From a virus (lineage: Duplodnaviria > Heunggongvirae > Uroviricota > Caudoviricetes), in IMG/VR virus record IMGVR_UViG_3300025018_000115, positions 1 to 33,362 of that record: a stretch of 33,362 bases of DNA; one strand, 5' to 3'. The notes under the pieces are model-generated. The model was not told the DNA's origin. It did no database searches and saw nothing but the letters and a program-made list of their open reading frames with translations. A program made the translations under genes and the position numbers. Positions 2,187 to 20,684 of the stretch are shown here, one piece after another. Position 1 is the stretch's first letter. Every line of letters begins with the position of its first letter.

Positions 2187-3803
2187 TTAGAATACGTAAG
2201 ATGTTACCTCTTGATCTTCTTCGTGAGATAATTCTTCGATTGTATTTTCGATTGCATTTTTGTGATTATTTAGGCTTATTGATCCTTCATCTATCACTAC
2301 TTCTTCTTTTTGTTCGACCTGTCTTGTTAATACTTTGTATACCTTTCCTTGTCTTGCAAGTGGTAGGTTTGTATCGTTGATTAGTCTTTTTGCTTTTTCA
2401 ATTTTTCCTTTTTCTAGATTCCAGATTATTTCCATAAATTCTTTTGTTTTTGGATTTGTTCTCATTTCATATGGAATACCTATAAGAATTGTTTTTTCTC
2501 TTGCGTCTTCAATTTTTCCTGTGATGAAGTTTAAAGATGCGTTTCTTGGAATTCCTACTGTTTGTGCAAATTTATTTTCCATCTTTTTGAATAGTGTTTT
2601 TGCTGAGTCTTCGTCTAATCGTGTTTTTATCACTGAATTTCCTATTAGTAGGTGTCCCTTTGTGTTTCTTGCGATTATTTTCTCTATTCCTTTTCTCATT
2701 CCAAAGATGTAGTAATTGTTTTTTATTTTCCAATTATGAGTTGCTATCTTGTCTTTTAGAATATCTGAGAATATTCCTACGTTTTCGTCTTGATTGTAGA
2801 ATACACTGATTGCTCCTTTAATAGAATCGATATCAATTTCTGTCTTTTTTACTTTTTCTTTTTTGGTTGATGTTGTTAGTTCTCTTTTTGTTGGTATTTT
2901 TGAATTTTTGAATTCCCAACCTAGTGCAATATTGTATTCTGCTTTCTCTTTGTCTTTAACTACCTGTTTCGCATTAAAGATATATTCTATTTCTTCTTTG
3001 AAAGCATCGTACATTTCGAATTTTTGGATTTCTTTTTTAATGTCTTTAATCAATGTTTTTGTCAATGATTTGAATTCCATTAGAGCTAGTGTTTGTAGTG
3101 CATCTCCTTGTTTGTCACTTTTAATTAGAATGTCATGACACTTTTTGAATGTCTCTGGTTTGAACATTATTTCGTGATATACGACTCCCATATATGCAAG
3201 TGTTGCGTTTGCAATTTTTGGTGTTGTTAACCATTCTGCTGATGGGCATCTGAATTCTATTGTGTATCCTGGGTTTCCATTTTGGTGAGTGAATTTTTCT
3301 TCTAATCTCATGTCATTGATTTTTCCATATCCTTGTTTTGTTCGAAGGCTTAGATTTGTTTTGTTTTCTGTAATTAGGATTGGTAGATAGAAAGAAGATA
3401 ATCGTCTTTGTATTGTGTTTTTTAATGCTCCGTCTATTCTTTTATATCCATCTGGTACCTCAAGATGAATATGTCCTCCTACTGCGCTGTGCTCTGATAG
3501 GGTTGACATGTCACATAAACTACTATATTTACTGAATTCTTTTAACATTCCTCCTATGTTGCTAACAACTCCTTCTGGGGTGTTAGATGGCTTTGGTCTA
3601 ATTTCTGCTGTTGATGATGCTCCGTCCCATCCTAGGTTTCCAAATTGTTTTATGTCAAAACCTTGGCTTGATGGGCTAAAGTCTTTTTTGTTTTTTAACA
3701 TAAGACTCATTGTTCTCTGTGCATCAATCTTTTTTTTCTGTATTGTTAATACAAATTCTGGATCGGCTCCCAGTTTAAAATTGAATTTTTTATTTGTTGT
3801 CAT
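2187..3803 (-). CDS. phiEco32-like COOH-NH2 ligase type 2 (glutamine synthetase-like fold) with long C-terminal extension
   Basis: LGADPEF, GWDG..AEIRP.PS, GGHIH and EFRCPSAEWL motifs; start moved to ATG 3803, directly after the stop of the 3806..4456 ORF. Confidence 0.85.
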   Translation of the reverse strand: MTTNKKFNFKLGADPEFVLTIQKKKIDAQRTMSLMLKNKKDFSPSSQGFDIKQFGNLGWDGASSTAEIRPKPSNTPEGVVSNIGGMLKEFSKYSSLCDMSTLSEHSAVGGHIHLEVPDGYKRIDGALKNTIQRRLSSFYLPILITENKTNLSLRTKQGYGKINDMRLEEKFTHQNGNPGYTIEFRCPSAEWLTTPKIANATLAYMGVVYHEIMFKPETFKKCHDILIKSDKQGDALQTLALMEFKSLTKTLIKDIKKEIQKFEMYDAFKEEIEYIFNAKQVVKDKEKAEYNIALGWEFKNSKIPTKRELTTSTKKEKVKKTEIDIDSIKGAISVFYNQDENVGIFSDILKDKIATHNWKIKNNYYIFGMRKGIEKIIARNTKGHLLIGNSVIKTRLDEDSAKTLFKKMENKFAQTVGIPRNASLNFITGKIEDAREKTILIGIPYEMRTNPKTKEFMEIIWNLEKGKIEKAKRLINDTNLPLARQGKVYKVLTRQVEQKEEVVIDEGSISLNNHKNAIENTIEELSHEEDQEVTSYVF

Positions 3804-3805
3804 TT

Positions 3806-4456
3806 TTAATTTGTTGAATAAAATCTTTGTTCTATTAATTGTCTGTATTCTTTTTTGGTGTTTAGTGTTTGGCATTCTTCACATTCAATATATTCTTCTT
3901 CATTTGCTCTTGCATCACAAATGATGATATGTTTGCATTCTTTGCAGATTATTGTTGTGTCGGTTGTGTCATCTCCTCTTTCGTTTGAGAATAAACTACT
4001 TATTTGGTTATTTGAGATGTTTACTCTGGCTTCTTCATCTTCTTCTAGTATGTTAGTTGGTTCTTCCATTGATCTTTCCCATCCTTCTCCGGCTGTTAAT
4101 ATGCCGTTTCTTCCTGTTTGTATTTCACTTGGCGCAAATGTAACTCCCGGTCTTGCTGGTTGATCAGAAACAGTCAAAGTTTCTGGTAGTGATGGTGAAT
4201 CTCTCCATACTAGTTCATTAAGAAAAAGAGTTCTGTCACATTCCATACATTCGTATTCTGGGCTTCCGTCCCAGTTTGTTTCTTCATTATCTGATTCATA
4301 GTCTCCCAAACTATCCATGTCTTCTGGTGACATTGCTCTTCCTCTTGCATTTGAGCCAGGTGATGGGAGATCGAAGTTTCCGTATTCGTGTCCTATAACA
4401 GGTCTGCTGTATCTAAGTTGGCATACTTCGTTCTCGCAATTTGGACATTCCCACAT
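3806..4456 (-). CDS. acidic protein with four CxxC pairs (two putative Zn ribbons)
   Basis: CPNC, CMEC, CKEC, CEEC; packed between the two amidase/ligase genes. Confidence 0.75.
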   Translation of the reverse strand: MWECPNCENEVCQLRYSRPVIGHEYGNFDLPSPGSNARGRAMSPEDMDSLGDYESDNEETNWDGSPEYECMECDRTLFLNELVWRDSPSLPETLTVSDQPARPGVTFAPSEIQTGRNGILTAGEGWERSMEEPTNILEEDEEARVNISNNQISSLFSNERGDDTTDTTIICKECKHIIICDARANEEEYIECEECQTLNTKKEYRQLIEQRFYSTN

Positions 4457-6684: not shown

Positions 6685-7473
6685 TTAGTTCTCATCTTCA
6701 AAATTAGGTGGATATATCCATTCTCCGTTTATGTTTCGGTTTACTTCGCTAGCTGTCATTGCTCGGTATGCTTGTTGCATGGCTTCTCTTGTTATATTTT
6801 GATTTTGTGAATGATGTGCTATAACTGGGCTAGTGCCTTTTTTTTTTATTCTTAGCATTTCTGTTTCGAAATCTCTTTCTATTTGTTGATTAACACTTTT
6901 TTTGTATCTTAGTGTTTCTTCTTGGCCACTTTGAAAGTATCTTTTGTTTTGGTTTATTTGACTTATTTTTTTTGATAGAAAGTCTTCTGTTCTCTGGTAT
7001 TTTTCGTTTCTTGTGTTTCTGTCGTAGTAAAGTGTTTCTTTTATTTTTCTTTTAATATCTGCTTCTTTTCTTGCTATTATTGTTTGTGTGTTTTCTGATG
7101 GATTTTCTATGTTTGTTTTGGGACTTTCAGCTTCAATTTCTTTTATTGCGATGTTTTTTGAGTTGTTTAACAATTCTTCTTCGGTTATTGCTATACAATA
7201 TTTTTTTGTTTCTATTGTATCTGTTTCTTTTTTGTTTGTTGTATATTTGTATAATCGATTTTTTGTTCTGTGTTCATACCAATAGTTTTCTGGGTGTATG
7301 TTTATGTCGAATTTTTCAATAAGAATGCATACATCGACCGGTAAGTATTTCATATTTATTTTGTTATTTTGTAGTGGTTTTCTTTGTATCCAATCTATTA
7401 TCTCTATGATTATTGCAGTTCCTATTAATCCTGTAATAAAAGATATGAATAATATTTTAATTAGACCTAGCAT
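6685..7473 (-). CDS. membrane-anchored coiled-coil protein
   Basis: N-terminal hydrophobic helix LIKILFISFITGLIGTAIIIEII; start moved to ATG 7473 because the upstream part overlaps a terminator. Confidence 0.7.
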   Translation of the reverse strand: MLGLIKILFISFITGLIGTAIIIEIIDWIQRKPLQNNKINMKYLPVDVCILIEKFDINIHPENYWYEHRTKNRLYKYTTNKKETDTIETKKYCIAITEEELLNNSKNIAIKEIEAESPKTNIENPSENTQTIIARKEADIKRKIKETLYYDRNTRNEKYQRTEDFLSKKISQINQNKRYFQSGQEETLRYKKSVNQQIERDFETEMLRIKKKGTSPVIAHHSQNQNITREAMQQAYRAMTASEVNRNINGEWIYPPNFEDEN

Positions 7474-7486
7474 TTGTTTTTTTGTT

Positions 7487-7512
7487 AAAGAAAACAGCCT
7501 CATATGAGGCTG
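7487..7512 (-). terminator. intrinsic terminator after the ACAGCAA hairpin array
   Basis: perfect 18-bp palindrome cagcctcatatgaggctg (7495-7512) followed on the minus strand by UUUUCUUU. Confidence 0.75.
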
Positions 7513-7520
7513 ATTCTTGC

Positions 7521-7569
7521 AATGCACGTTTTAATTTTGCAGATTAATTTTTATTGCTGTTAGTGCATT
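7521..7569 (-). ncRNA. ACAGCAA stem-loop unit 3
   Basis: minus strand AAUGCAC-UA-ACAGCAA-(A/U rich)-GUGCAUU-G. Confidence 0.65.
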
Positions 7570-7585
7570 ATTGATTTGTTTTAAC

Positions 7586-7641
7586 AAGGCTCAGATGAAA
7601 ATTCCAAATAATTTTTTATTGTGTTTTGCTGTGCGAGCCTT
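7586..7641 (-). ncRNA. ACAGCAA stem-loop unit 2
   Basis: minus strand AAGGCUC-GC-ACAGCAA-(A/U rich)-GAGCCUU-G. Confidence 0.65.
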
Positions 7642-7652
7642 TTTTGTTTTGC

Positions 7653-7707
7653 AAGACCCTTGTTTTCAAACCAAATTGAATTTTATAATTTTTGCTGTGT
7701 GGGTTTT
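7653..7707 (-). ncRNA. ACAGCAA stem-loop unit 1
   Basis: minus strand AAAACCC-AC-ACAGCAA-(A/U rich)-GGGUCUU-G (one A.C mismatch); begins 4 nt after the DUF2828 stop. Confidence 0.6.
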
Positions 7708-7711
7708 AATT

Positions 7712-9112
7712 CTATGCTATTTTGATGTCTTTGTATCTTTCACTGTTTATTACATCTTCTACTACCTCTTCTGGAGTTTTGTTTTCTACAGCAATTTTGA
7801 ATGTTGAAGGTGAAAATCCTGATACTAAGGTAACTCCCTTTTCTGTTGCTGTTGTTGGTATGTTTGTGTTTCTTGCGTCTACATTCCAGAATACCACATT
7901 AGGAATTTTATAACCAGCTTCTTTGTACTGGTCTTGAATTAATTCGTAGGAAGTTCTTGTCGGTGAGGCTTGATCGAATTGCATATCAGAGATTATGTAG
8001 ATTGTCTCTGGCATATCTTTTTCTGATACTTTGTTTTGAACTGCTGTGTTTAGTAAGACTGTGAATATTTTGTTTAGATCTGTGTTGTATCCCCATTCTG
8101 TTTTTTCAATCATTTTTATCTTTTCTTCTAGTGTTTCTCCTTTTATTTCTTGTATTTCTGGTGTTTCTGAGAATGTAATGAAGTGATTATGGAATGCGCC
8201 TTGATTTCTTTCTGCGAAGTATAATGCTAGTGAAACTGATACAGACATTGGTCGTCCTTGCATTGAACCTGAAACGTCAGCTACAACGATTCCATTTTTA
8301 CCTCTTGTGTAATCTGGTAGGTTTTTCCATAATTCATCTGAACCTGTTTCTGATGCTCTTTCGTATATTTGGTGTGGGAAAAGAGTTCTTGTGTTTATCT
8401 TTTCTTCTCCTTTATTGACAGATTCTAGATATGTTGTGTATCTATTTTCATCATTCCTAAAGAAAGCTTTCTTGTATTTTAGTGATGCTTGAGATGGCAC
8501 TTTGCTGTATTCAATCTCGTTGAATTCTTTTCTTGACATCTTTTGTTCCACTAATTTAATCTTTTTTCTTAGTTGTGAAAGAGTTTTTCTGTATTCTCTT
8601 GGACTTGCGCCTAATGCTTTCATTATTTCTCTTGCTTTCGCTTTAGTTTCTTTTGATGAAGCATTTTCTGATGGTAACCACTTTGCGAGTAGAGATGGAG
8701 TCTCTGATTTGAAATCTTGGATTAGCTGTTCTTTGATGATTGGCGCTATTGTATCTATTTCGAATGATAGAAGATCATCGTATCTCCCGTATTCTGGGGT
8801 GTATTTTGCTATGGTATTAGCTATTTCTGGCTTATTTTCTCTTAAATAAGAAATACAATTTCTGAAGAGAGTTCTTTCTCCTTGTCCGCCTCGTATATCT
8901 CGGAGGTAAAAAAGGATTTTAATAGCTTTTTCTGGGTTTTCTATTAGGGCTTTAGAGAATAGTTCTATTCCTATTTCTGGGTTATCTCTTGTTGCTCCTG
9001 CTAGTGCAAAGAAGTCTACTATTGATTTTCCTGAGTGCGTAAGAGTTTGAGCTCCATTCTCTGTCTCTGTACGATTCATTGTACCTTTTAGTTTGTTTAT
9101 TAATTTATTCAT
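7712..9112 (-). CDS. DUF2828-family protein (helical N-terminal domain + C-terminal vWA/MIDAS domain; TROVE/Ro60-like architecture)
   Basis: YLRDIRGGQGER, EYGRYDDL, LAKWLPSE, YSKVPSQA, VADVSGSM (MIDAS DxSxS), ISDMQFD, VFWNV, LVSGFSPS; start placed at ATG 9112, overlapping the upstream stop. Confidence 0.88.
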   Translation of the reverse strand: MNKLINKLKGTMNRTETENGAQTLTHSGKSIVDFFALAGATRDNPEIGIELFSKALIENPEKAIKILFYLRDIRGGQGERTLFRNCISYLRENKPEIANTIAKYTPEYGRYDDLLSFEIDTIAPIIKEQLIQDFKSETPSLLAKWLPSENASSKETKAKAREIMKALGASPREYRKTLSQLRKKIKLVEQKMSRKEFNEIEYSKVPSQASLKYKKAFFRNDENRYTTYLESVNKGEEKINTRTLFPHQIYERASETGSDELWKNLPDYTRGKNGIVVADVSGSMQGRPMSVSVSLALYFAERNQGAFHNHFITFSETPEIQEIKGETLEEKIKMIEKTEWGYNTDLNKIFTVLLNTAVQNKVSEKDMPETIYIISDMQFDQASPTRTSYELIQDQYKEAGYKIPNVVFWNVDARNTNIPTTATEKGVTLVSGFSPSTFKIAVENKTPEEVVEDVINSERYKDIKIA

Positions 9113-9377
9113 GTTTTTGGTTACGACATTTTTTACATGTCTTATAATTTTCATCTTCTTTCTTCCGTCCACATCGTGAACATCTGTCTTGTTGCAGTCT
9201 AATCTTGGCTTGATAATTTCTTGATAGGTTTATGCATTTTTCGCATCTTGTTCGACCTTTTTGTATTGGGTTTCTTATGCAATTTCTGCATACACCTAGA
9301 GAATTAGCAAAATCTTTGATTTCTTTAATTTTCTTTTTCACTTTATTGATTTTCTCTATTTTGTAATTCTCGTACAA
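9105..9377 (-). CDS. small protein with two tandem CxxC...CxxC Zn fingers
   Basis: CRNC..RCEKC and CSRC..TCKKC; start uncertain (TTG 9377 or GTG 9341). Confidence 0.7.
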   Translation of the reverse strand: MYENYKIEKINKVKKKIKEIKDFANSLGVCRNCIRNPIQKGRTRCEKCINLSRNYQAKIRLQQDRCSRCGRKKEDENYKTCKKCRNQKHE

Positions 9378-9486
9378 TTTCTTCGAAGTCTTGCAATGAA
9401 TGTATTGTGTTTGAGCGATCCCATTCTTCTACTATGGTATCATATTCTTCTTGCAATTCTTCGTTTGTCATTTTTGTGTAGTCCAT
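9343..9486 (-). CDS. acidic micro-protein (47 aa, MDYTKMTNEELQEEY...)
   Basis: translated by hand; fills the gap; ATG 2 nt after the upstream stop. Confidence 0.65.
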   Translation of the reverse strand: MDYTKMTNEELQEEYDTIVEEWDRSNTIHSLQDFEEIVRELQNRENQ

Positions 9487-9488
9487 AT

Positions 9489-9623
9489 TTAAGATAGGAT
9501 TAGATATAATACTAGTCCAGATGTTACAAATAAAGTTTTTGAGCTTATTGCGGGGTAGTTTTCTGTGGCTAGTGTTATGAATGCTGCTATGGCTATTAAT
9601 GCTAATAATGTTTCTGTTTTCAT
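9489..9623 (-). CDS. small membrane protein (44 aa, two hydrophobic segments)
   Basis: translated by hand: MKTETLLALIAIAAFITLAT...LFVTSGLVLYLILS. Confidence 0.65.
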   Translation of the reverse strand: MKTETLLALIAIAAFITLATENYPAISSKTLFVTSGLVLYLILS

Positions 9624-9624
9624 A

Positions 9625-9798
9625 TTATTCATTGATTAATTTTAGACCCAGAATCATTATAGGGATGGCTATTAACATAAATATCATTACTTTCATCTGC
9701 AATATAAGCCCTTCTGTTCCGTATTCTTGATAATTTGCCATACTAATAAGTGTAATAAATGGTGATATAAATAGGAGTATTCCGGCTATTTGTTTCAT
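9625..9798 (-). CDS. small membrane protein (57 aa, two hydrophobic segments)
   Basis: translated by hand: MKQIAGILLFISPFITLISMA...VMIFMLIAIPIMILGLKLINE. Confidence 0.65.
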   Translation of the reverse strand: MKQIAGILLFISPFITLISMANYQEYGTEGLILQMKVMIFMLIAIPIMILGLKLINE

Positions 9799-9814
9799 GT
9801 TATTTAATTGTTAA

Positions 9815-10021
9815 TTATAGATCTTCCCACTCGGTTGATTCTTCTCCATCTTCTGATTGTGCCATTATTTGGGCATCAGTTCCTATATCGTCTGAATCTA
9901 GTACGAATTCTTCGTTGTTGTATTTTTCTCTTGCTATATCGATTGCCTCGTCTATGTTTTCTGCCTCTACTGGGAAGGTTTTACATAGGGGTTGCTCGAT
10001 TGATATGTTGTATATCTTCAT
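9815..10021 (-). CDS. DpnD/PcfM-like small protein
   Basis: I.Q.L.KTFPVEAENIDEAIDIAREKYNNEEFVLDSDD pattern. Confidence 0.65.
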   Translation of the reverse strand: MKIYNISIEQPLCKTFPVEAENIDEAIDIAREKYNNEEFVLDSDDIGTDAQIMAQSEDGEESTEWEDL

Positions 10022-10027
10022 GTTTTT

Positions 10028-10255
10028 TTAATTTGTTATAGTTTTGTTGATAATGACTTCGTCTTCTTTTCTTGATTTTAGATTCAAGCTGATGCTTTCT
10101 CCGTAGCATTTGAAGTTTCCTTGCTCGTCACGCGTAACGAATCCTGCTCCGACTGGTTTACCGAATAGGCTATCTCCAATTTTTCGGTGTTCTGTGAGTG
10201 TTGTGAAGATCGCGAAGTCATTTTCGTCAGTCACAACGTATTTTAAGTTATTCAT
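10028..10255 (-). CDS. phage hypothetical protein (75 aa)
   Basis: GAGFV...KCYGESISLNLKSR; start moved to ATG 10255, directly after the upstream stop. Confidence 0.7.
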   Translation of the reverse strand: MNNLKYVVTDENDFAIFTTLTEHRKIGDSLFGKPVGAGFVTRDEQGNFKCYGESISLNLKSRKEDEVIINKTITN

Positions 10256-10256
10256 T

Positions 10257-10358
10257 TTATTCTTTTTTTTTCCATTTATCTGATAATGCAAACGGGAGTA
10301 ATAAAAGAAAAAAGAACATTCCTAGTCCTAATAAGAACCAAAACTCTGGTGTAGGCAT
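10257..10358 (-). CDS. single-TM micro-protein (33 aa)
   Basis: translated by hand: MPTPEFWFLLGLGMFFFLLLLPFALSDKWKKKE. Confidence 0.6.
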   Translation of the reverse strand: MPTPEFWFLLGLGMFFFLLLLPFALSDKWKKKE

Positions 10359-10438
10359 ATTTATTATTTATTAATTTGTGCTTTTAAGCATTTTTTACAT
10401 AGGAATATTCTTCCTGTGTGTATTTCATATCTTTGTTT

Positions 10439-10627
10439 TTAATAATCTAGCAAATCTCTGTATTCTTCGTCTTCTTGTTTTTGTTTTTTAAAAATGTCAC
10501 AATTACATTCTTCGTTTCCACATTCTTCACAAATGATTTCACATTTTGGACATGAAGTTTTTGGATTATTCTTCCAGTCTGTTGCTATTCTTTTGCAGTT
10601 TTTGCACTTGTATGTTTGTGTTTTCAT
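10439..10627 (-). CDS. small Cys-rich Zn-binding protein
   Basis: CKNC, CPKC, CEEC..ECNC; start moved to ATG 10627. Confidence 0.7.
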   Translation of the reverse strand: MKTQTYKCKNCKRIATDWKNNPKTSCPKCEIICEECGNEECNCDIFKKQKQEDEEYRDLLDY

Positions 10628-10632
10628 ATTTA

Positions 10633-10908
10633 TTACCAATTACCATTAATGGTATCTGCTTCTCCAAAACAGCATGGTCCGCATAGCATATTTTCTTCTA
10701 CGAGTACGGTTTCCATTCCACAGCTTTCACATTTTCCAAATTCTTTGCTATCTTCATAGAAGGCGGTGGCTTTGTCTATTATTTTCATGTCTTGTTTCAT
10801 TAGCGCCATTGATTTGGGATTATCTATATAATATCCTTTTTGAGATCGTTTTAGCGCTTTATTGAGTTTCTTTAATTCTTCTTTGTTCATATTGTTTATT
10901 GTTGCCAC
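10633..10908 (-). CDS. small protein with a C-terminal Zn ribbon
   Basis: CESC...LCGPCC. Confidence 0.7.
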   Translation of the reverse strand: MATINNMNKEELKKLNKALKRSQKGYYIDNPKSMALMKQDMKIIDKATAFYEDSKEFGKCESCGMETVLVEENMLCGPCCFGEADTINGNW

Positions 10909-11036
10909 AGATTATGTCTTATACAGAAGTATACTTTTTGAAAGTTACCAACCTTTGTTTTGCTGATGCGTGCTGGGCTTTCACTGCATTTATCACATGC
11001 ATATTCTTTTTTATATGGTTTGTATTTTCTTTTCAT
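10896..11036 (-). CDS. Zn-ribbon micro-protein (46 aa)
   Basis: translated by hand: CDKC...YFCIRH; overlaps the next start. Confidence 0.6.
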   Translation of the reverse strand: MKRKYKPYKKEYACDKCSESPARISKTKVGNFQKVYFCIRHNLWQQ

Positions 11037-11056
11037 ATTGTTTTATTTATTAATTT

Positions 11057-11189
11057 GGTGCTCAGAACGGGAAGCGTTATATAATTTCAATACCTCTCAA
11101 TTGCAGTGAGGATATGCCCTTGCTATGAAATTCTGATATATAGTCAGCCGCTTCCCGCTCTATTCGCCATGACGCGAAACGTCAGCCCC
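11057..11189 (-). ncRNA. candidate ~130-nt multibranch structured RNA / leader
   Basis: 13-bp stem 11064-11076/11149-11161 (with a G.U on the minus strand), inner stems AAUUUCA/UGAAAUU, CUGA/UCAG, CUCA/UGAG, and an upstream UGACG/CGUCA hairpin. Confidence 0.5.
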
Positions 11190-11203
11190 ATTACCTTTGG
11201 CAG

Positions 11204-11255
11204 AAAAAAAGCAGTTATATATAGTTTTTAATGAATATAATGAATATAACTGCTT
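11204..11255 (-). terminator. probable intrinsic terminator
   Basis: perfect 12-bp IR aagcagttatat (11209-11220) / atataactgctt (11244-11255) ending in a 7-U run on the minus strand, just after the stop at 11260; loop is unusually long (23 nt). Confidence 0.55.
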
Positions 11256-11259
11256 ATCT

Positions 11260-11418
11260 CTACGCTACTTGTGTATCGCTTTCTAGTAAGGCGAATACTT
11301 TTTCTATTGCAATGCTTTTTGTTTTTCCTACTGTGTAATACCAGAACACTTTTCTTGCTGTACGAACTCGAGCTGTAAGAAAGCTATTTCCACCTATCGA
11401 TTGAAATTTGATGTCCAT
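11260..11418 (-). CDS. micro-protein (52 aa)
   Basis: translated by hand: MDIKFQSIGGNSFLTARVR... Confidence 0.55.
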   Translation of the reverse strand: MDIKFQSIGGNSFLTARVRTARKVFWYYTVGKTKSIAIEKVFALLESDTQVA

Positions 11419-11525
11419 ATCTTTTTTGAGATTATAACTAATAAGATTGCTAATACTGCTATTTCTATTGTTAGGCTATTTAAGAATAAACCTATCGCTA
11501 ATGCTAGTGGTAGAAGTAATACCAT
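11394..11525 (-). CDS. hydrophobic micro-protein (43 aa)
   Basis: translated by hand: MVLLLPLALAIGLFLNSLTIEIAVLAILLVIISKK... Confidence 0.5.
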   Translation of the reverse strand: MVLLLPLALAIGLFLNSLTIEIAVLAILLVIISKKIWTSNFNR

Positions 11526-11526
11526 A

Positions 11527-11652
11527 TTACTTTTTCTCTGCTATCTTTGCTAGTAGTACTTCTAGTGGTTGGTATTTTTCTTTCTTGACCTCTTTCTTAT
11601 AATTGGTAACTGCTAATACAAATGATTTTTCATCTTTTATTGCTACTGGCAT
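11527..11652 (-). CDS. micro-protein (41 aa)
   Basis: translated by hand: MPVAIKDEKSFVLAVTNYKKEVKKEK...; stop abuts the next ATG. Confidence 0.55.
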   Translation of the reverse strand: MPVAIKDEKSFVLAVTNYKKEVKKEKYQPLEVLLAKIAEKK

Positions 11653-12320
11653 ATTGTTATTTATTATTATTAAGGTCTAAAAGCTGGGCTATTTGACAGA
11701 TACAACTGATATCTAATGACTATTCTAGTGTCTGGTGATATGTCTATATCTATCAAATAACCCGTCTTTTATGACGGGGTATTGACAACTTTTGTTTTGC
11801 GTTATCAAGCAAGTATCTTCTATTAAAGAAGGATTGTGTAAAGTTTATACGATTTACAGCGCTTAATCGAGATTAACTCGAGAGATTTGAACTTTTATTT
11901 AATTGTGTATTTAGTTATCAGGGAGGAAAAAGATTTAATAAAGTCTCTGGATTTGCTAATAGGATAAAACCTAATGCGGGTAAAGAAACTTTTAGTACTA
12001 TACATAACTTTACTATGTATATGTAGAAGTAAATACTTTTAGTACGTATTGTATAAAGGTTAAGCTATAAAGCTTTGTTGTTTACGATACGTATATTAGC
12101 TAACACTGTATGAGAGGAATGGCTACCAAGCAAGGATTGTAATGGCTGTGCGTATCCGAGCAGAAAAGCTCCCAATTGGTCTTTTAAATGACGGCGTTGC
12201 GATGATTACATGTTGTGCTGGCTTTGTTGCCCTCGTTACGATAGATGAACTATGTGTAGCGGTAATGATTACAATTACGCGGTATGTAATTCATAGATTA
12301 GCTCTCGGTGTTTGTGGGGC

Positions 12321-13300
12321 GCGTTACGCGTAACGCTAGGCTTACAGTTTGTGTAGGAATGGCTATTTTGTAGCTATGGCTATACTGCTGACTCGCTTTG
12401 CGTTACGCGTTGCGTGTTGCTCTGGCTTAATGCATTGATTACACGTGTGTCGTGCATGGCGCACGTTGTACATTGCACGTGTAGGTGCTTGAGCTGACGC
12501 GTGACGCGGATAAATCCACATTCGCTTCTAAACCCTCCTCTACCCTCTACGTAGTTTCGCTCTACGCTGTGGCTACAGAAGAGTTGTTAGTTTGTACATT
12601 CTCAAACAGGGATGCGTCGAACTCAAGATTGACTTCTTCACCTGAGTTACACTCGATAGCGTCTGCCTCTTTCATAATGTAGGTTGTTCCACCAGTTTCG
12701 GTGTTGTACTTCGAATATAGGTCTGCGTTAGCGAAATGGAATACACGTACTCCATTGCCAGCTTTGTCAGACAAGGTATCGAAGATAACCTTAGGCTTAA
12801 TAACACGAAGCATGTCGAAGATTCCTCGAGCTATTCGTACTTTTACGTATCCGTCGATAGGATCACTAATGATCCCTGTTACTACCAACTTAATATCTGA
12901 TTTCATAATGAATATAATTACTTAATGAATATACTACTGTCACCACTACTATCTAAACGTTCAAATATTGCAATGTGTTCAACGAAGCACACATAGTCGA
13001 CTCAATACTCATAAAAATAGTTGAACGTTTTACCACGGGGCGTACAGAGCGTTACGCGAGGCGCGAGGGGACACAGAGCGTACAATGGCGCCACGCGTAA
13101 CGTAGCAACGCGCAGCGTTGATACGGGGGTACGGGGGGTTGTCGATTTGACTCCCTGAGAAAAAGTTCAGGGTAGGGGGATACGTTACCATCCGTGTCTC
13201 CGAAAGATTCTGTACTTTTCCGGCGCCAAAACTCGTTTACACGCTGCTCTGCCTCAAACCTCACGCCCAAACCCCTAAACATATAGCGCGTAACGCGTTA
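12321..13300. repeat. dispersed GCGTTACGCG / CGCGTAACG motif cluster
   Basis: perfect 16-bp palindrome gcgttacgcgtaacgc (12321-12336); further copies at 12400-12410, 13049-13058, 13093-13102 and 13287-13300. Confidence 0.7.
12562..12906 (-). CDS. hypothetical beta-rich protein (114 aa)
   Basis: ORF track; globular-looking sequence; AT-rich leader. Confidence 0.7.
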   Translation of the reverse strand: MKSDIKLVVTGIISDPIDGYVKVRIARGIFDMLRVIKPKVIFDTLSDKAGNGVRVFHFANADLYSKYNTETGGTTYIMKEADAIECNSGEEVNLEFDASLFENVQTNNSSVATA

Positions 13301-13507
13301 AGGGTGGTTTGGAAGTGTTTTGCGTTTGAAAAAACGACCCGCCAAAAAAATTCGCGCAATTTTTGGGAAAACGGGTACAAAAAACTAAAATGTTTCACAA
13401 AAAAAACATAACATATTAGGTATACGATTTTTTTAAACGGCTTAGCTGAGCCATTCGCAAATGTTGCGGCAACATTAAGTCCCACGTTTCACGGAAAAAA
13501 CGTAGCG

Positions 13508-13534
13508 AAAAACCACCCTTCAGGTGGTGGTTTT
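13508..13534 (-). terminator. intrinsic terminator (potentially bidirectional)
   Basis: aaaaccacc (13509-13517) / ggtggtttt (13526-13534), 30 nt past the 13565 stop. Confidence 0.75.
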
Positions 13535-13564
13535 AGCGTCTCGTTGCATCCCTGTTGTTAAAAA

Positions 13565-14449
13565 TTACTTCTTTTTGTTGCGTACTTTGTATTCCTTCAG
13601 GCTGTGTGACTCGTAAGGTGGTTTGCAGTAACCTTCGTCCTTAGGAAAAGCTGATGGCGCTATGTATACAGGAGTTACGAATTTGACTCCTTTTGCTTCT
13701 AGGTTCTTGCGAGTGTCGTAATATATCGTCATTACGCTGGTGGGGTCATCTTCTCGGTCGAAATTAGCTGTGATTGCTGGCGAGTAAGTTTCATCTCCGA
13801 ATCCTGTGCCTAGAGAAGAAACGCTGTAGGTGCTGGCTGTAGTATAGGTGACACTTAAGCCATCTGCTCCTCCTGTTCCGTTGCCTCCTGAGGATCCAAA
13901 GACGTCTTTGCTCCCCCCACCTGCGCCTGAGTTCATTGCTGAGGTCACTGTGTCATATGGAATTGTGTCTTTAAAGAAATCGTGGTCGCTCTCGAATATT
14001 GGCCAGTAGCTGTTGCCGTAAGTGATCCTCGCGGTGTGTTTAGGTTTTTCGTTGAATACTGCGCATCCTATGACTCCTAGGTTGTCTGATTGGCCTATTT
14101 TTGCCCCGTAGCTGTCTTTACCATCTGTAAATAGGAATTGTGCCACACTGTCGTCTGACGTGCGCCAGCCCTTAATTTTGATTGAATCACGGGGTGGTAT
14201 GATGTATCCTTTTGAGTTATATGAACCTTCTTTACCTGATATTACAGATATACCATCCACGGTGAGAACGTATAGGGCTCTTTTGTTTGTATCGTTTCTC
14301 AATCTTATGGTGAATGGGGTGTCTTTTTTCCCCTCTATGTATCTTTGATCTTCGTGAAGGTATTCCTTGACTGGAGATCCATTTACTATGATATCCATTC
14401 GGTGGTCACCATTGTCACTGAATGTGTAGTTAATTGATTGTGTTGACAT
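13565..14449 (-). CDS. conserved hypothetical protein (294 aa) with a beta-rich N-domain and Gly/Ser/Thr-rich linker
   Basis: YIEG...FTIRLRN...VLTVDGISVISG...GYIIPP...IKGWR...LGVIGCAVFNEK pattern, which I recall from uncharacterised phage and bacterial proteins. Confidence 0.8.
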   Translation of the reverse strand: MSTQSINYTFSDNGDHRMDIIVNGSPVKEYLHEDQRYIEGKKDTPFTIRLRNDTNKRALYVLTVDGISVISGKEGSYNSKGYIIPPRDSIKIKGWRTSDDSVAQFLFTDGKDSYGAKIGQSDNLGVIGCAVFNEKPKHTARITYGNSYWPIFESDHDFFKDTIPYDTVTSAMNSGAGGGSKDVFGSSGGNGTGGADGLSVTYTTASTYSVSSLGTGFGDETYSPAITANFDREDDPTSVMTIYYDTRKNLEAKGVKFVTPVYIAPSAFPKDEGYCKPPYESHSLKEYKVRNKKK

Positions 14450-14523
14450 ATTTATTGTTGTGAAGACTTCGTGCCCCTTTGGGGACTTATTGCTTCTTAA
14501 AGGGATGTCAATGAGCTATCCAC

Positions 14524-14561
14524 AGTTTACCCCTTGCAATTTACTTGTCAAGTGATATAGT
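14524..14561. promoter_or_regulatory. overlapping divergent sigma70-type promoters
   Basis: minus strand: TTGACA (14551-14546)-N16-TAAACT (14529-14524); plus strand: TTGCAA (14534-14539)-N16-TATAGT with TGn extension; located at the coding-strand switch. Confidence 0.55.
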
Positions 14562-14599
14562 AGATATATTACTAGTTTAGTATAAAAAAATAATAATAT

Positions 14600-14923
14600 A
14601 TGAATAGAAAAAAGATAATAGAGGATTTTCAGAATCATCCCGCATCAAAGTTTGCTGCTAATGTAGAGGTGCTGCAGGCCATAAGGTCAGGAACACAGGG
14701 TTTTGACGGGGATGAGAATCAAACTGAATGGCTAGAAAAGACCTTGATTATGTTTGAGAGGGATATAATCGAAAAGAATATAATGGAATTAGAAGGCTTT
14801 GTGTCCGCCATGAAAGATCTTAATACAGGGACAAGTAGAGTCTTGGATGGAGAAAATTCTTCAGACAAAGTCATAAAAATGTTTTTGCAAGCAAAGAGAG
14901 AGGAATTGAAATTATTAAAGTAA
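14600..14923 (+). CDS. hypothetical protein (107 aa)
   Basis: ORF track; first gene of the rightward arm. Confidence 0.75.
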   Translation: MNRKKIIEDFQNHPASKFAANVEVLQAIRSGTQGFDGDENQTEWLEKTLIMFERDIIEKNIMELEGFVSAMKDLNTGTSRVLDGENSSDKVIKMFLQAKREELKLLK

Positions 14924-18239: not shown

Positions 18240-19397
18240 ATGGATAAAATAAAAACATTCATCCCATGGGATGAGATAGAAAAAGAAGCTCAGGATCAAA
18301 TAAAAGAAACATCATCAATGCCTTTTATTTTTAGACATGTTGCAGTAATGCCAGACTGTCATTACGGGAAGGGGTCAACGGTGGGTACTGTTATAGCAAC
18401 GCAGGGAGCGATTATTCCAGCCGCAGTTGGAGTAGATATCGGGTGTGGAATGATTGCTGTTAAAACAAATCTTAACTACAAAGAGCTAGTTGACATCCCG
18501 GCATTACGTCATTCGATTGAGAGGTCTGTGCCAATGAGTGCAGGTAAGTACAATAACAAAATAAGCGAGTCTGCTCAGAAAAGAATAGATGAACTTGAGG
18601 TGCTAGAACATACAGATAGAGTTCGTGGTAATTGGCAGAATCAACTAGGAACACTTGGTGGAGGAAATCACTTTATAGAAATATGTTACGACGAGGAAGG
18701 ATCAATGTGGGTGACTCTTCATTCTGGATCTAGAGGTGTCGGAAACAAAGTTGGGAACACCTATATTAAAATTGCACAGAAGATATGCAAGGACATGTTT
18801 GTAAGTTTGCCTAACGATGACCTTGCATATATTCCAGAAGGGCACGTTGAGTTTGATAATTACATGAAGGATCTAAAATGGTCACAGAGATTTGCAATGC
18901 TTAACAGGGAAGAAATGATGGACAGAGTTTTGAAAGATGTTAGTTATGCGTTCTTCGGAGAGAACGGGCATCAGGAAGAATTTGAGATCGAAAGAATAAA
19001 TTCACACCATAACTTCACACAGGTAGAGGACCATATGGGAGGAAGGGCATGGATAACAAGAAAAGGGGCAATAGAAGCATCTGAAGGGAAGAAGGCTATG
19101 ATCCCTGGGTCTATGGGAACAAGAAGTTATATTGTTATTGGAAAGGGGGAAGAAACATCTTTTTGTTCAGCCCCACATGGCGCAGGAAGAAGAATGAGTC
19201 GAACAAAGGCCAGGGAGATATTTACCGAAAAAGATCTTGATGAGTCAATGAACGGAATTGAATATCGAAAATCGAAAGTCCTTATTGATGAAATACCAGG
19301 AGCATATAAGGATATAGACCAAACGATAGAGTACGCAAAAGAACTTGTTGGTGTCGAACATAAGTTGAAGCAGATATTAAATTGTAAGGGTGATTAA
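18240..19397 (+). CDS. rtcB: RtcB family RNA ligase (3'-phosphate / 2',3'-cyclic phosphate ligase)
   Basis: MPDCHYGKG, GVDIGCGM, GTLGGGNHFIE, HSGSRG, HHN, RKGA, PGSMGT, SAPHGAGR, DEIPGAYKDI are all intact. Confidence 0.96.
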   Translation: MDKIKTFIPWDEIEKEAQDQIKETSSMPFIFRHVAVMPDCHYGKGSTVGTVIATQGAIIPAAVGVDIGCGMIAVKTNLNYKELVDIPALRHSIERSVPMSAGKYNNKISESAQKRIDELEVLEHTDRVRGNWQNQLGTLGGGNHFIEICYDEEGSMWVTLHSGSRGVGNKVGNTYIKIAQKICKDMFVSLPNDDLAYIPEGHVEFDNYMKDLKWSQRFAMLNREEMMDRVLKDVSYAFFGENGHQEEFEIERINSHHNFTQVEDHMGGRAWITRKGAIEASEGKKAMIPGSMGTRSYIVIGKGEETSFCSAPHGAGRRMSRTKAREIFTEKDLDESMNGIEYRKSKVLIDEIPGAYKDIDQTIEYAKELVGVEHKLKQILNCKGD

Positions 19398-19402
19398 AGA
19401 TT

Positions 19403-19888
19403 ATGAAAATGAAATGTGAAGGGTGTAAAAAAGAAGTTGAAAGAACAAGTAATAGTCAGAGGTACTGTAATAAAAAATGCCGCACATCTTGTTATTACAA
19501 AAGAATAAGGGAGAAGTCAAATCTGTATCAAAGAGAGAGGTGGTACAGAAAAAACATCGCAACAAAAAAGAACAAAATCAAGTGTGAGGTTTGCGGTCGT
19601 TCATATAGACAGGTCGGGTCACACATAACGCAGAGACATGGAATGACAGCAAGAGAGTACCGCGAGGAGTACGGTTTTGATGTGAAGAGAGGTCAGTTGC
19701 CAGAAGATTTGCGCCAACATAAGGCAGAAAAAACAAGAGAGAATGGCACAATAGAAAATCTAAAGAAAGGTAAGAAGTTCTGGCTTAAGAAGGGTGAGAG
19801 TATCCCGTACATTAGAAGTCAGCAGACATTGGATAGGTTAAAAAATAATTTTAAGAGAAATGAAAAACAAACAAAAAAGAAAAAATAG
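19403..19888 (+). CDS. Zn-finger + Ros/MucR-like domain protein
   Basis: CEGC...YCNKKC; CEVCGRSYRQVGSHITQRHGMTAREYREEYG. Confidence 0.8.
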   Translation: MKMKCEGCKKEVERTSNSQRYCNKKCRTSCYYKRIREKSNLYQRERWYRKNIATKKNKIKCEVCGRSYRQVGSHITQRHGMTAREYREEYGFDVKRGQLPEDLRQHKAEKTRENGTIENLKKGKKFWLKKGESIPYIRSQQTLDRLKNNFKRNEKQTKKKK

Positions 19889-20684
19889 AAATGTTGAATA
19901 TGAAATAGAATATGAAGATGCCCCATCAGGGAATATTACGTTTTATAACTATAAGGAACCACTTATGGAATATCGTGACGGTTTTGGTTATGTTGGCGCC
20001 ATTATCTTCGACGGAGAGTCAGACAAAATACAATGCCATATATGCGGTGAATGGTTTGCAAATCTTGGACGACATATCGGTCCATCTCACCAGATAACGG
20101 CATATGATTATAAAGAGATGGTGGGGTTGAATCAATCAACAGCTTTGATTAATGAGTCAACAAGAGAAAAACTTATTCGAAAAAACATGAAGAAGAGAAA
20201 GGCCAATCTTAGACCCGGAGGCAAAAAGAGCAAAGAAGTTAGAGCAAAAATAAGTGAGACATTAAAGCGATTAAATGCTGAAAAGAAAAATCTTCGAAAT
20301 ACATGTCCTGCTCAGTTGATAGAAAGACTGCAGAAGCAAGCGAGAGAGGAGGGCCGAACTCCATATTCAAAAAGCGTTCCTTTTATCGCTGCACTATGTA
20401 AGACTTTCGGGTCATATCAAGAGTCCTGCAAGATAGCGGGTATTAAGGCAAGAAAACCTGGTCAAACAGAAAGGACAGCATATAAGTTTTCAGATAATTT
20501 TGAGTTTACAGATAAGCAGTTTTTGAAATTGATTGTTGATTTTGTAAAAAGAGAAAAACGTCTTCCTAGCTTTTCTGATTCACGTAGAGGGTTGTTCCCA
20601 TACAGAAAGGAGTATATAGAAAGGTTTGGAACATGGAAAAAAGCAGTGAAGTTATCAGGGGTAAAAATAATTAGACATGAGTAG
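19860..20684 (+). CDS. Ros/MucR-like domain + NUMOD3-like motif + two homing-endonuclease-associated repeats
   Basis: CHICGEWFANLGRHIGPSHQITAYDYKEMVGL; KSKEVRAKISETLK; FGSYQESCKIAG and FGTWKKAVKLSG. Confidence 0.75.
   Translation: MKNKQKRKNRNVEYEIEYEDAPSGNITFYNYKEPLMEYRDGFGYVGAIIFDGESDKIQCHICGEWFANLGRHIGPSHQITAYDYKEMVGLNQSTALINESTREKLIRKNMKKRKANLRPGGKKSKEVRAKISETLKRLNAEKKNLRNTCPAQLIERLQKQAREEGRTPYSKSVPFIAALCKTFGSYQESCKIAGIKARKPGQTERTAYKFSDNFEFTDKQFLKLIVDFVKREKRLPSFSDSRRGLFPYRKEYIERFGTWKKAVKLSGVKIIRHE

Follow-up and report, generated by a model that had tools for sequence, protein, structure and literature searches.

Candidate Y-RNA-like small RNAs encoded beside a predicted Ro60-like protein in a tailed phage and its relatives

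Introduction

Ro60/Y-RNA particles are a textbook case of RNA quality control and, in humans, an autoantigen. To our knowledge, all bacterial and phage examples so far combine a TROVE-annotated protein with Y RNAs of the CGAA type. Here we analyze a locus of another make, found in the opening 33 kb of a viral record 97,362 bp long (Caudoviricetes; IMG/VR record IMGVR_UViG_3300025018_000115), a stretch of 33,362 nucleotides that we refer to as the window. On its minus strand, three small RNA units sharing the motif ACAGCAA follow directly upon a gene for a protein of the DUF2828 and DUF7788 families. An earlier reading of the window, made without database searches (the sequence-only reading), had proposed that the array consists of small processed RNAs or protein-binding hairpins acting as ligands of the co-transcribed protein, by analogy with the Y RNAs encoded next to Ro60/Rsr. 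Comparison with other loci and with known folds leads us to regard the units as likely Y-RNA-like partners of a Ro60-like protein, belonging to a previously uncatalogued RNA family.

The YrlA RNAs of bacteria combine a permuted tRNA-like module with a conserved 5'-proximal motif, GNCGAAN0-1G or CGAA (Chen et al. 2014, PMC4201824). Bacterial Y RNAs are co-transcribed in an operon and then processed (PMC4201824), and an rsr-yrlBA-rtcBA RNA-repair operon has been described (PMC4201824, PMC7790460). Thermus phage phiLo encodes a Ro60 together with Yrl1 and Yrl2 (PMC12135203), and the phage Ro60/Y-RNA literature that we found concerns TROVE proteins with CGAA-type RNAs. Furthermore, a preprint describes the Ro60-like Bas63 gp130, which is encoded directly upstream of tRNA genes, as countering the Ppl defence; its authors guess that some of the neighbouring tRNA genes are Y RNAs (10.1101/2024.10.10.617714). 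Overexpression of the 'Ro-like' LeBron gp53 in M. smegmatis causes moderate toxicity (PMC13148394). No functional paper came up when full texts were searched for either DUF2828 or DUF7788, or for the accessions of these families. Among eukaryotes, the Class I RNAs of Dictyostelia measure 42-65 nt and display a short terminal stem, an adjacent conserved motif and a variable interior (PMC7919456), with GTTGRCCTTACAGCAA ... GTCAACTG as the published search pattern (PMC5054030).

Results

The RNA array

Viewed on the minus strand, the array comprises three tandem units of about 51-56 nt, at 7707-7652, 7641-7585 and 7569-7520, each of them closed by a 7-bp stem whose 5' strand is followed by 2 nt, ACAGCAA and the A/U-rich rest of the loop, with UUG at the 3' end. 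The stop codon of the DUF2828 gene (7714-7712) is followed after 4 nt by unit 1, which reads AAAACCC (7707-7701), AC, ACAGCAA (7698-7692), 32 nt, GGGUCUU (7659-7653) and G (7652); its loop spans 41 nt and contains a weak inner hairpin (UUCAA/UUGAA with a UUUGGU loop). Unit 2 consists of AAGGCUC (7641-7635), GC, ACAGCAA (7632-7626), 33 nt, GAGCCUU (7592-7586) and G (7585), with a loop of 42 nt and a perfect stem of 7 bp, or 8 bp counting G7634.U7593. Unit 3 is composed of AAUGCAC (7569-7563), UA, ACAGCAA (7560-7554), 26 nt, GUGCAUU (7527-7521) and G (7520), the stem again being perfect; its loop of 35 nt holds a possible weak inner hairpin (UUAAU/AUUAA, with the 7-nt loop CUGCAAA). Number, placement behind the stop codon, loop lengths and UUG ends are thus as the sequence-only reading had described them. 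Its statement that the stems differ and yet keep their pairing holds for units 2 and 3, whereas unit 1 pairs at only six of seven positions owing to an A.C mismatch (A7705/C7655) that had gone unmentioned.

The A-rich spacers between the units (10 and 15 nt) and the intrinsic terminator that closes the array were likewise recovered. The terminator begins 7 nt past unit 3 and reads CAGCCUCAUAUGAGGCUG plus a U-tract, over 7512-7487; its hairpin (7512-7495) has 7 bp, of which 5 are G-C, and a 4-nt loop, and is followed by UUUUCUUU, as expected of intrinsic termination. Considering that no convincing promoter separates them, the DUF2828 gene and the array look like a single transcription unit. The motif ACAGCAA is encountered 16 times in the window, compared to 5.5 +/- 2.2 times in shuffles. 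A CRISPR array, dismissed already in the sequence-only reading, was rejected also here, as what the units share is not a repeat sequence but a motif together with a fold. An ARAGORN search of the window detected no tRNA or tmRNA. The 97-kb genome carries a single tRNA (Met, CAU) at 49950-50022, and many of the related DUF2828 genes sit in large tRNA arrays.

Predicted Ro60 fold of the DUF2828/DUF7788 protein

The open reading frame in front of the array extends on the minus strand from GTG 9172 down to 7712, and the protein start was assigned to ATG 9112, as in homologs and in the recorded 466-aa form. The product is recognized by the Pfam families DUF7788 (7e-55) and DUF2828 (4e-38) and by PHROG 850, 'RNA-binding protein' (6e-154), and its translation retains the DxSxS MIDAS motif (DVSGS) in the vWA part. 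Pfam TROVE, on the other hand, gave no match at E<=10. As sequence and profile searches were negative, the relationship to Ro60 is shown by fold comparison only, for which an AlphaFold (AF2) model with a predicted local distance difference test score (pLDDT) of 86.9 was exploited.

Using Foldseek against the PDB, the 12 best matches are all Ro60/TROVE structures (E 1.6e-7), including Thermus phage phiLo Ro60, Xenopus and human Ro60, and Deinococcus Rsr. The VIA-align superposition of the model on Ro60 covers 394 residues between positions 9 and 446 (Z 20.1); Ro60 accounts for all of the ten best matches (Z 12.6-20.1), while the next fold, isolated vWA domains, reaches a Z of 9.1. The Swiss-Prot models rank likewise, with Ro60 on top, followed by telomerase p80, another TROVE protein. 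Thus, as modelled, the DUF2828/DUF7788 protein has a Ro60 fold, with a ring of HEAT-like repeats and then a vWA domain.

Conservation of the units beside DUF2828 genes

A search of viral contigs with the single protein gave no close relatives, and we consequently turned to a protein profile, which retrieved 80 viral loci, most of them displaying the same architecture near the gene and on the sense strand. A covariance model, R1, was assembled from 69 aligned non-redundant short units of other viral loci, without any sequence of the window. All seven stem pairs of this alignment show several pair types, for example A-U, G-C, U-A and C-G at column 8/77, and G.U pairs and compensatory changes are present, so that the covariation proposed from the three units alone is borne out by the wider family. 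The family consensus reads N-A-A-A-G-G-C-R-C-N-N-A-C-A-G-C-A-A ... G-Y-G-C-C-U-U-G, with CAGCA and the terminal G invariant or nearly so, and unit 2 is almost identical to it (AAAGGCRC-NN-ACAGCAA...GYGCCUUG). Applied with filters off to the whole window, R1 returns exactly the three units, with nothing further below E 3, and over the whole 97-kb genome it finds the same three only. The units match the model and adjoin a DUF2828/DUF7788 gene on the same strand, which places them in the family defined by R1, for which we coin the name CAGCAA-handle RNAs.

We further exploited an independent set of 80 loci from prokaryotic genome assemblies (513 kb), none of which had been used in building R1. 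The model yields 107 matches at E<=0.01, distributed over 59 of the 80 loci and located, in 107 of 107 cases, on the strand of the DUF2828 gene, in line with the enrichment beside such genes that the ligand proposal of the sequence-only reading implied. The majority, 99, lie upstream of the gene (median distance 116 nt, three quarters within 287 nt) and the remaining 8 just downstream. As the first unit finder demanded pairing, a test free of that demand was also made, in the fixed register of the family. Among 192 occurrences of ACAGCAA in the sense-strand flanks of the independent loci, 100 are accompanied by a perfect 7-bp stem. The controls gave 91 of 3840 when the 73 nt downstream were shuffled, 3 of 55 for antisense sites and 0 of 14 for sites within the gene body. 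A naive finder, accepting CAGCAA and any stem of at least 7 bp within 220 nt, was noisy, with 36 chance matches in the 97-kb genome; for this reason its counts of long units are not relied on, and R1 and the fixed-register tests carry the argument. The nearest units of the relatives end 16-34 nt before the DUF2828 start codon, and some units are dispersed over tRNA arrays, at distances of up to kilobases from the gene. Aggregated, these sequence comparisons indicate that the RNA family is widespread and accompanies a Ro60-like protein in hundreds of phages.

Table 1. Positions of the RNA units and associated features in the window
Feature	Position	Strand	Description
DUF2828 + DUF7788/vWA gene	7712..9112	minus	466 aa, predicted Ro60-fold protein
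Unit 1	7650..7709	minus	from sequence; R1 match 32.4 bits, E 6.4e-5
Unit 2	7583..7643	minus	from sequence; R1 match 41.8 bits, E 5.8e-7
Unit 3	7518..7571	minus	from sequence; R1 match 36.1 bits, E 1e-5
Intrinsic terminator	7487..7512	minus	closes gene-plus-RNA transcription unit
RtcB RNA ligase gene	18240..19397	plus	Pfam RtcB 1e-114, 384 bits; outside array

Variable modules and cultured phages

Inside the same handle, the relatives often have a module of roughly 90 nt, in which a T-arm, an acceptor-like stem-loop and a D-arm appear in permuted order. These tRNA-like modules are matched by the Rfam model of YrlA at 33-50 bits, below the cut-off of 69, the match mostly covering only the tRNA-like core. 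The T-loop motif is present in 36 of 70 long units. Among the short units of the relatives, inner hairpins with 7-nt loops are enriched (35, compared to 4.7 +/- 2.3 in shuffles), as is the anticodon-loop signature Y-U-NNN-R (18, compared to 0.3); the triplets in these anticodon-like loops include UUU, UCU, GUU, UUG and GCA. In some relatives, for instance locus L029 (4033-4155), the handle surrounds a full tRNA in normal order, scoring 67.5 bits as tRNA.

Homologs of the DUF2828 protein are found in 709 cultured phage records, among them Felix O1-type phages, KVP40, Listeria and Campylobacter phages and cluster L mycobacteriophages, and GenBank already labels homologs as 'Ro-like RNA binding protein'. 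Mycobacterium phage Faith1 gp55 was confirmed as DUF2828 plus DUF7788. In both Faith1 and Staphylococcus phage S-CoN_Ph17, the gene is immediately followed by an unannotated gap with strong R1 matches. In Faith1, the gap behind gp55 measures 369 nt (L169, 1630-1999) and contains two strong matches and one weak. S-CoN_Ph17 (L170) has a 50-bit match at 2098-2161, after a split gene: the DUF2828 half (2179-2781) and the DUF7788 half (2936-3694) are annotated as two coding sequences 154 nt apart, an arrangement for which an intron, a frameshift or a genuine division of the gene could be responsible. In a Felix O1-type phage, the DUF2828 gene is located directly upstream of a tRNA array, with weak R1 matches (16 bits) between the tRNAs.

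Comparison with known RNA systems

The locus resembles Ro60/Y-RNA systems in that a ring-shaped HEAT-repeat and vWA protein, as predicted here, adjoins several small RNAs on the same strand. The RNA design is also reminiscent of Y RNAs: the 5' and 3' ends of each unit pair with one another, a conserved motif lies on the 5' side, and the module is variable. The likeness to YrlA extends to the permuted tRNA-like domain in modules of the relatives and to the RtcB gene encoded nearby. There are also differences. The protein belongs to the DUF2828/DUF7788 families and has no sequence match to TROVE, and the window units, at only 51-56 nt, are devoid of the tRNA-like domain of YrlA. Rfam YrlA (RF02553) finds nothing in the region 7300-7900 at E<=10 and reaches its gathering score nowhere, relatives included. 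Thus, the family would work like Y RNAs yet falls outside the sequence and model definition of YrlA, as ACAGCAA takes the place of GNCGAA/CGAA. An Rfam scan of the window at E<=10 otherwise returned only chance-level matches (SraG, AsxR, a snoRNA and RsaJ), which we dismissed because they are explained by the terminator or by A/T-rich sequence.

A further likeness is found in the Class I RNAs of Dictyostelium (RF01414), whose published pattern contains the identical ACAGCAA, and which share with our units a covarying stem joining the ends and a G after the 3' strand. Of the 11-nt Class I motif, CCTTACAGCAA, seven nucleotides (ACAGCAA) are identical and placed at the same position, while the preceding four differ; the size of 51-56 nt, the 7-bp terminal stems and the variable interior of the units lie within the Class I description. 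However, RF01414 (gathering score 41.5 bits) misses the three units even at E 10, and its best matches in the genome, at 10.9-13.8 bits, fall at unrelated places. Class I RNAs are moreover eukaryotic, reportedly exclusive to Dictyostelia and equipped with a promoter element of their own, and of their direct binders only the RRM protein Rnp1A is known. No Dictyostelium homolog of DUF2828 is listed in the Swiss-Prot fold library, and the cluster library shows no organisms.

As to Bas63 gp130, the Felixounavirus homologs of the DUF2828 protein have the same layout upstream of a tRNA array, and on the basis of this matching layout gp130 is probably a DUF2828 ortholog. The preprint, unlike the present analysis, defined no RNA family. 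For the CAGCAA-handle RNAs themselves, neither a family in Rfam nor a paper in the literature searched was found. The earlier claim of an undescribed system therefore stands with respect to Rfam and these papers, but must be tempered for the protein, already 'Ro-like' in GenBank, and for the idea of neighbouring Y RNAs, already guessed in the preprint.

RtcB and genomic surroundings

Of 160 related loci, 32 (20%) have an RtcB-like gene no more than 3 kb away from the DUF2828 gene, usually adjacent and co-oriented. This proximity resembles the bacterial rsr-yrlBA-rtcBA operon, and by that analogy RtcB is a probable functional associate of the DUF2828 protein/RNA system. Right after the RtcB gene of the window follow two consecutive genes for Ros/MucR-type zinc-finger proteins (19403-19888 and 19860-20684, plus strand), the second of which also carries a homing-endonuclease-associated repeat.

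Upstream of the DUF2828 gene, the minus strand at 9100-12500 exhibits 3 kb of many very small open reading frames, several of them cysteine-rich with CxxC pairs (e.g. 9105-9377 and 10439-10639). Further CAGCAA units were sought at 9100-10700, and only small open reading frames were found. At about 12000-14600, gene orientation turns from minus to plus, the G+C content rises from about 0.32 to 0.38-0.44 and the AT skew flips sign, probably marking a module boundary or a divergent promoter region. Elsewhere, genes for a phiEco32-like COOH-NH2 ligase (2187-3875, minus strand) and a class-I glutamine amidotransferase/Peptidase C26 (4464-5318, minus strand) are near each other and may constitute a phage peptide- or amide-ligase module.

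Discussion

We consider it likely, by analogy with the known particles, that the three units are Y-RNA-like partner RNAs of the Ro60-like protein, and the system is probably a new relative of the Ro60/Y-RNA particle. The analogy drawn in the sequence-only reading has gained from the predicted Ro60 fold of the protein and from the YrlA-like tRNA mimics inside handles of the relatives. Several observations nevertheless weigh against it. The canonical CGAA motif of Y RNAs is absent, the units carrying ACAGCAA instead, and the window's three units are without a tRNA-like domain, their inner hairpins being weak. At the level of the protein, a profile search of PDB sequences finds no Ro60, and neither TROVE nor any PDB chain is matched by sequence. 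Units 1 (A.C) and 3 (U-A) deviate from the best-conserved stem pair of the family, G5-C80, and the closing stem of unit 1 is missing from its minimum-energy fold. Folding energies are unremarkable compared to shuffles (z = +0.76, -1.82 and -0.11 for units 1, 2 and 3), and the case for more than chance consequently rests on the comparison with other loci. Finally, no convincing separate promoter was detected between gene and units, and our searches found no report of expression, processing or binding for this phage or for any family member.

The missing promoter bears on the most serious alternative, namely that the hairpins are never released as free partner RNAs and act in cis on the DUF2828 mRNA, in a regulatory or stabilizing manner. 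Without a promoter of their own, the units could function within the 3' untranslated region (UTR) of the message; in most relatives the corresponding location is the 5' UTR, and the hairpins might serve as autoregulatory sites for the protein or as barriers to 3' exonucleases. Congruent with this, unit 1 starts 4 nt past the stop codon, one terminator closes gene and array together, and the nearest units of the relatives end 16-34 nt before the start codon. A purely cis-acting element is however hard to reconcile with several copies per locus that differ in their variable modules, or with units of the relatives that are spread through tRNA arrays, kilobases from the gene, and endowed with tRNA-like domains, and the bacterial Y RNAs are likewise transcribed in an operon before being processed (PMC4201824). 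We judge this alternative rather unlikely, and it overlaps with a partner role, as the same protein would still bind.

It is considerably less probable that the units are decayed tRNA remnants, or spacers or processing signals of tRNA arrays, lacking a dedicated protein partner. The frequent location of relatives in tRNA arrays and the resemblance of some modules to anticodon arms, or their inclusion of T-arms, would fit such an origin, but in this genome the single tRNA is 42 kb away, the handle is conserved across very distant phages where it tracks the DUF2828 gene rather than tRNAs, and an invariant CAGCAA next to a covarying stem is unexpected in remnants. Least credible are elements acting at the DNA level, such as recombination or replication hairpins or the ends of mobile elements, or inverted repeats arisen by chance. 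Short inverted repeats are indeed common in A/T-rich DNA, and the naive finder was noisy at long loops. Such explanations are however already disfavoured by the strict strand specificity (107 of 107), by the G.U pairs, compensatory changes and conserved single-stranded motif, and by R1 E-values of 1e-5 to 1e-7 with no other match in 97 kb.

If the units are indeed partner RNAs of the Ro60-like protein, the following sequence of events can be envisaged. The gene and the three RNAs would be transcribed together from the minus strand, with termination at 7512-7487, and the RNAs released as species of about 55 nt, the A-rich spacers representing the likely cleavage sites. The 5' and 3' ends of each RNA would form the 7-bp helix (consensus AAGRYNN / NNRYCUU, then the invariant G), and the single-stranded ACAGCAA beside the helix would complete the conserved handle. 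By analogy with the stem and GGUCCGA/CGAA motif of Y RNAs, and considering the co-inheritance of gene and units, we infer that the handle docks the RNA on the Ro60-like ring. The variable loop, in this phage represented by three short A/U-rich loops, may then constitute the working module, engaging a target or an effector. The role of the particle would most likely be surveillance or repair of damaged RNA, especially tRNA, or blunting of host defence, alongside RtcB, although we attach far less confidence to any specific downstream role than to the partnership as such.

In a still wider perspective, a single ancient class may unite the Class I RNAs of dictyostelids with the CAGCAA-handle RNAs found in phages, bacteria and archaea, a class in which the handle docks DUF2828-type Ro60-like proteins. 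We regard this unification as doubtful, but if true, it would delineate a second Ro/Y-like ribonucleoprotein lineage ranging from viruses to eukaryotes, and a candidate protein partner would be at hand for the Class I RNAs, for which an explanation has been lacking since 2004, making a 20-year-old question directly testable.

Irrespective of this, the data point towards a second protein family that is predicted to be Ro60-like in structure and is unrelated in sequence, with its own RNA family and a different handle. This yields a function-level hypothesis for a large DUF family, and would account for unannotated gaps and 'spacers' beside DUF2828 genes in well-studied phages. It also suggests ties to RNA repair via RtcB and possibly to anti-defence, via the Bas63 gp130 result against Ppl, and with E. 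coli, Salmonella and M. smegmatis tractable model systems are at hand.
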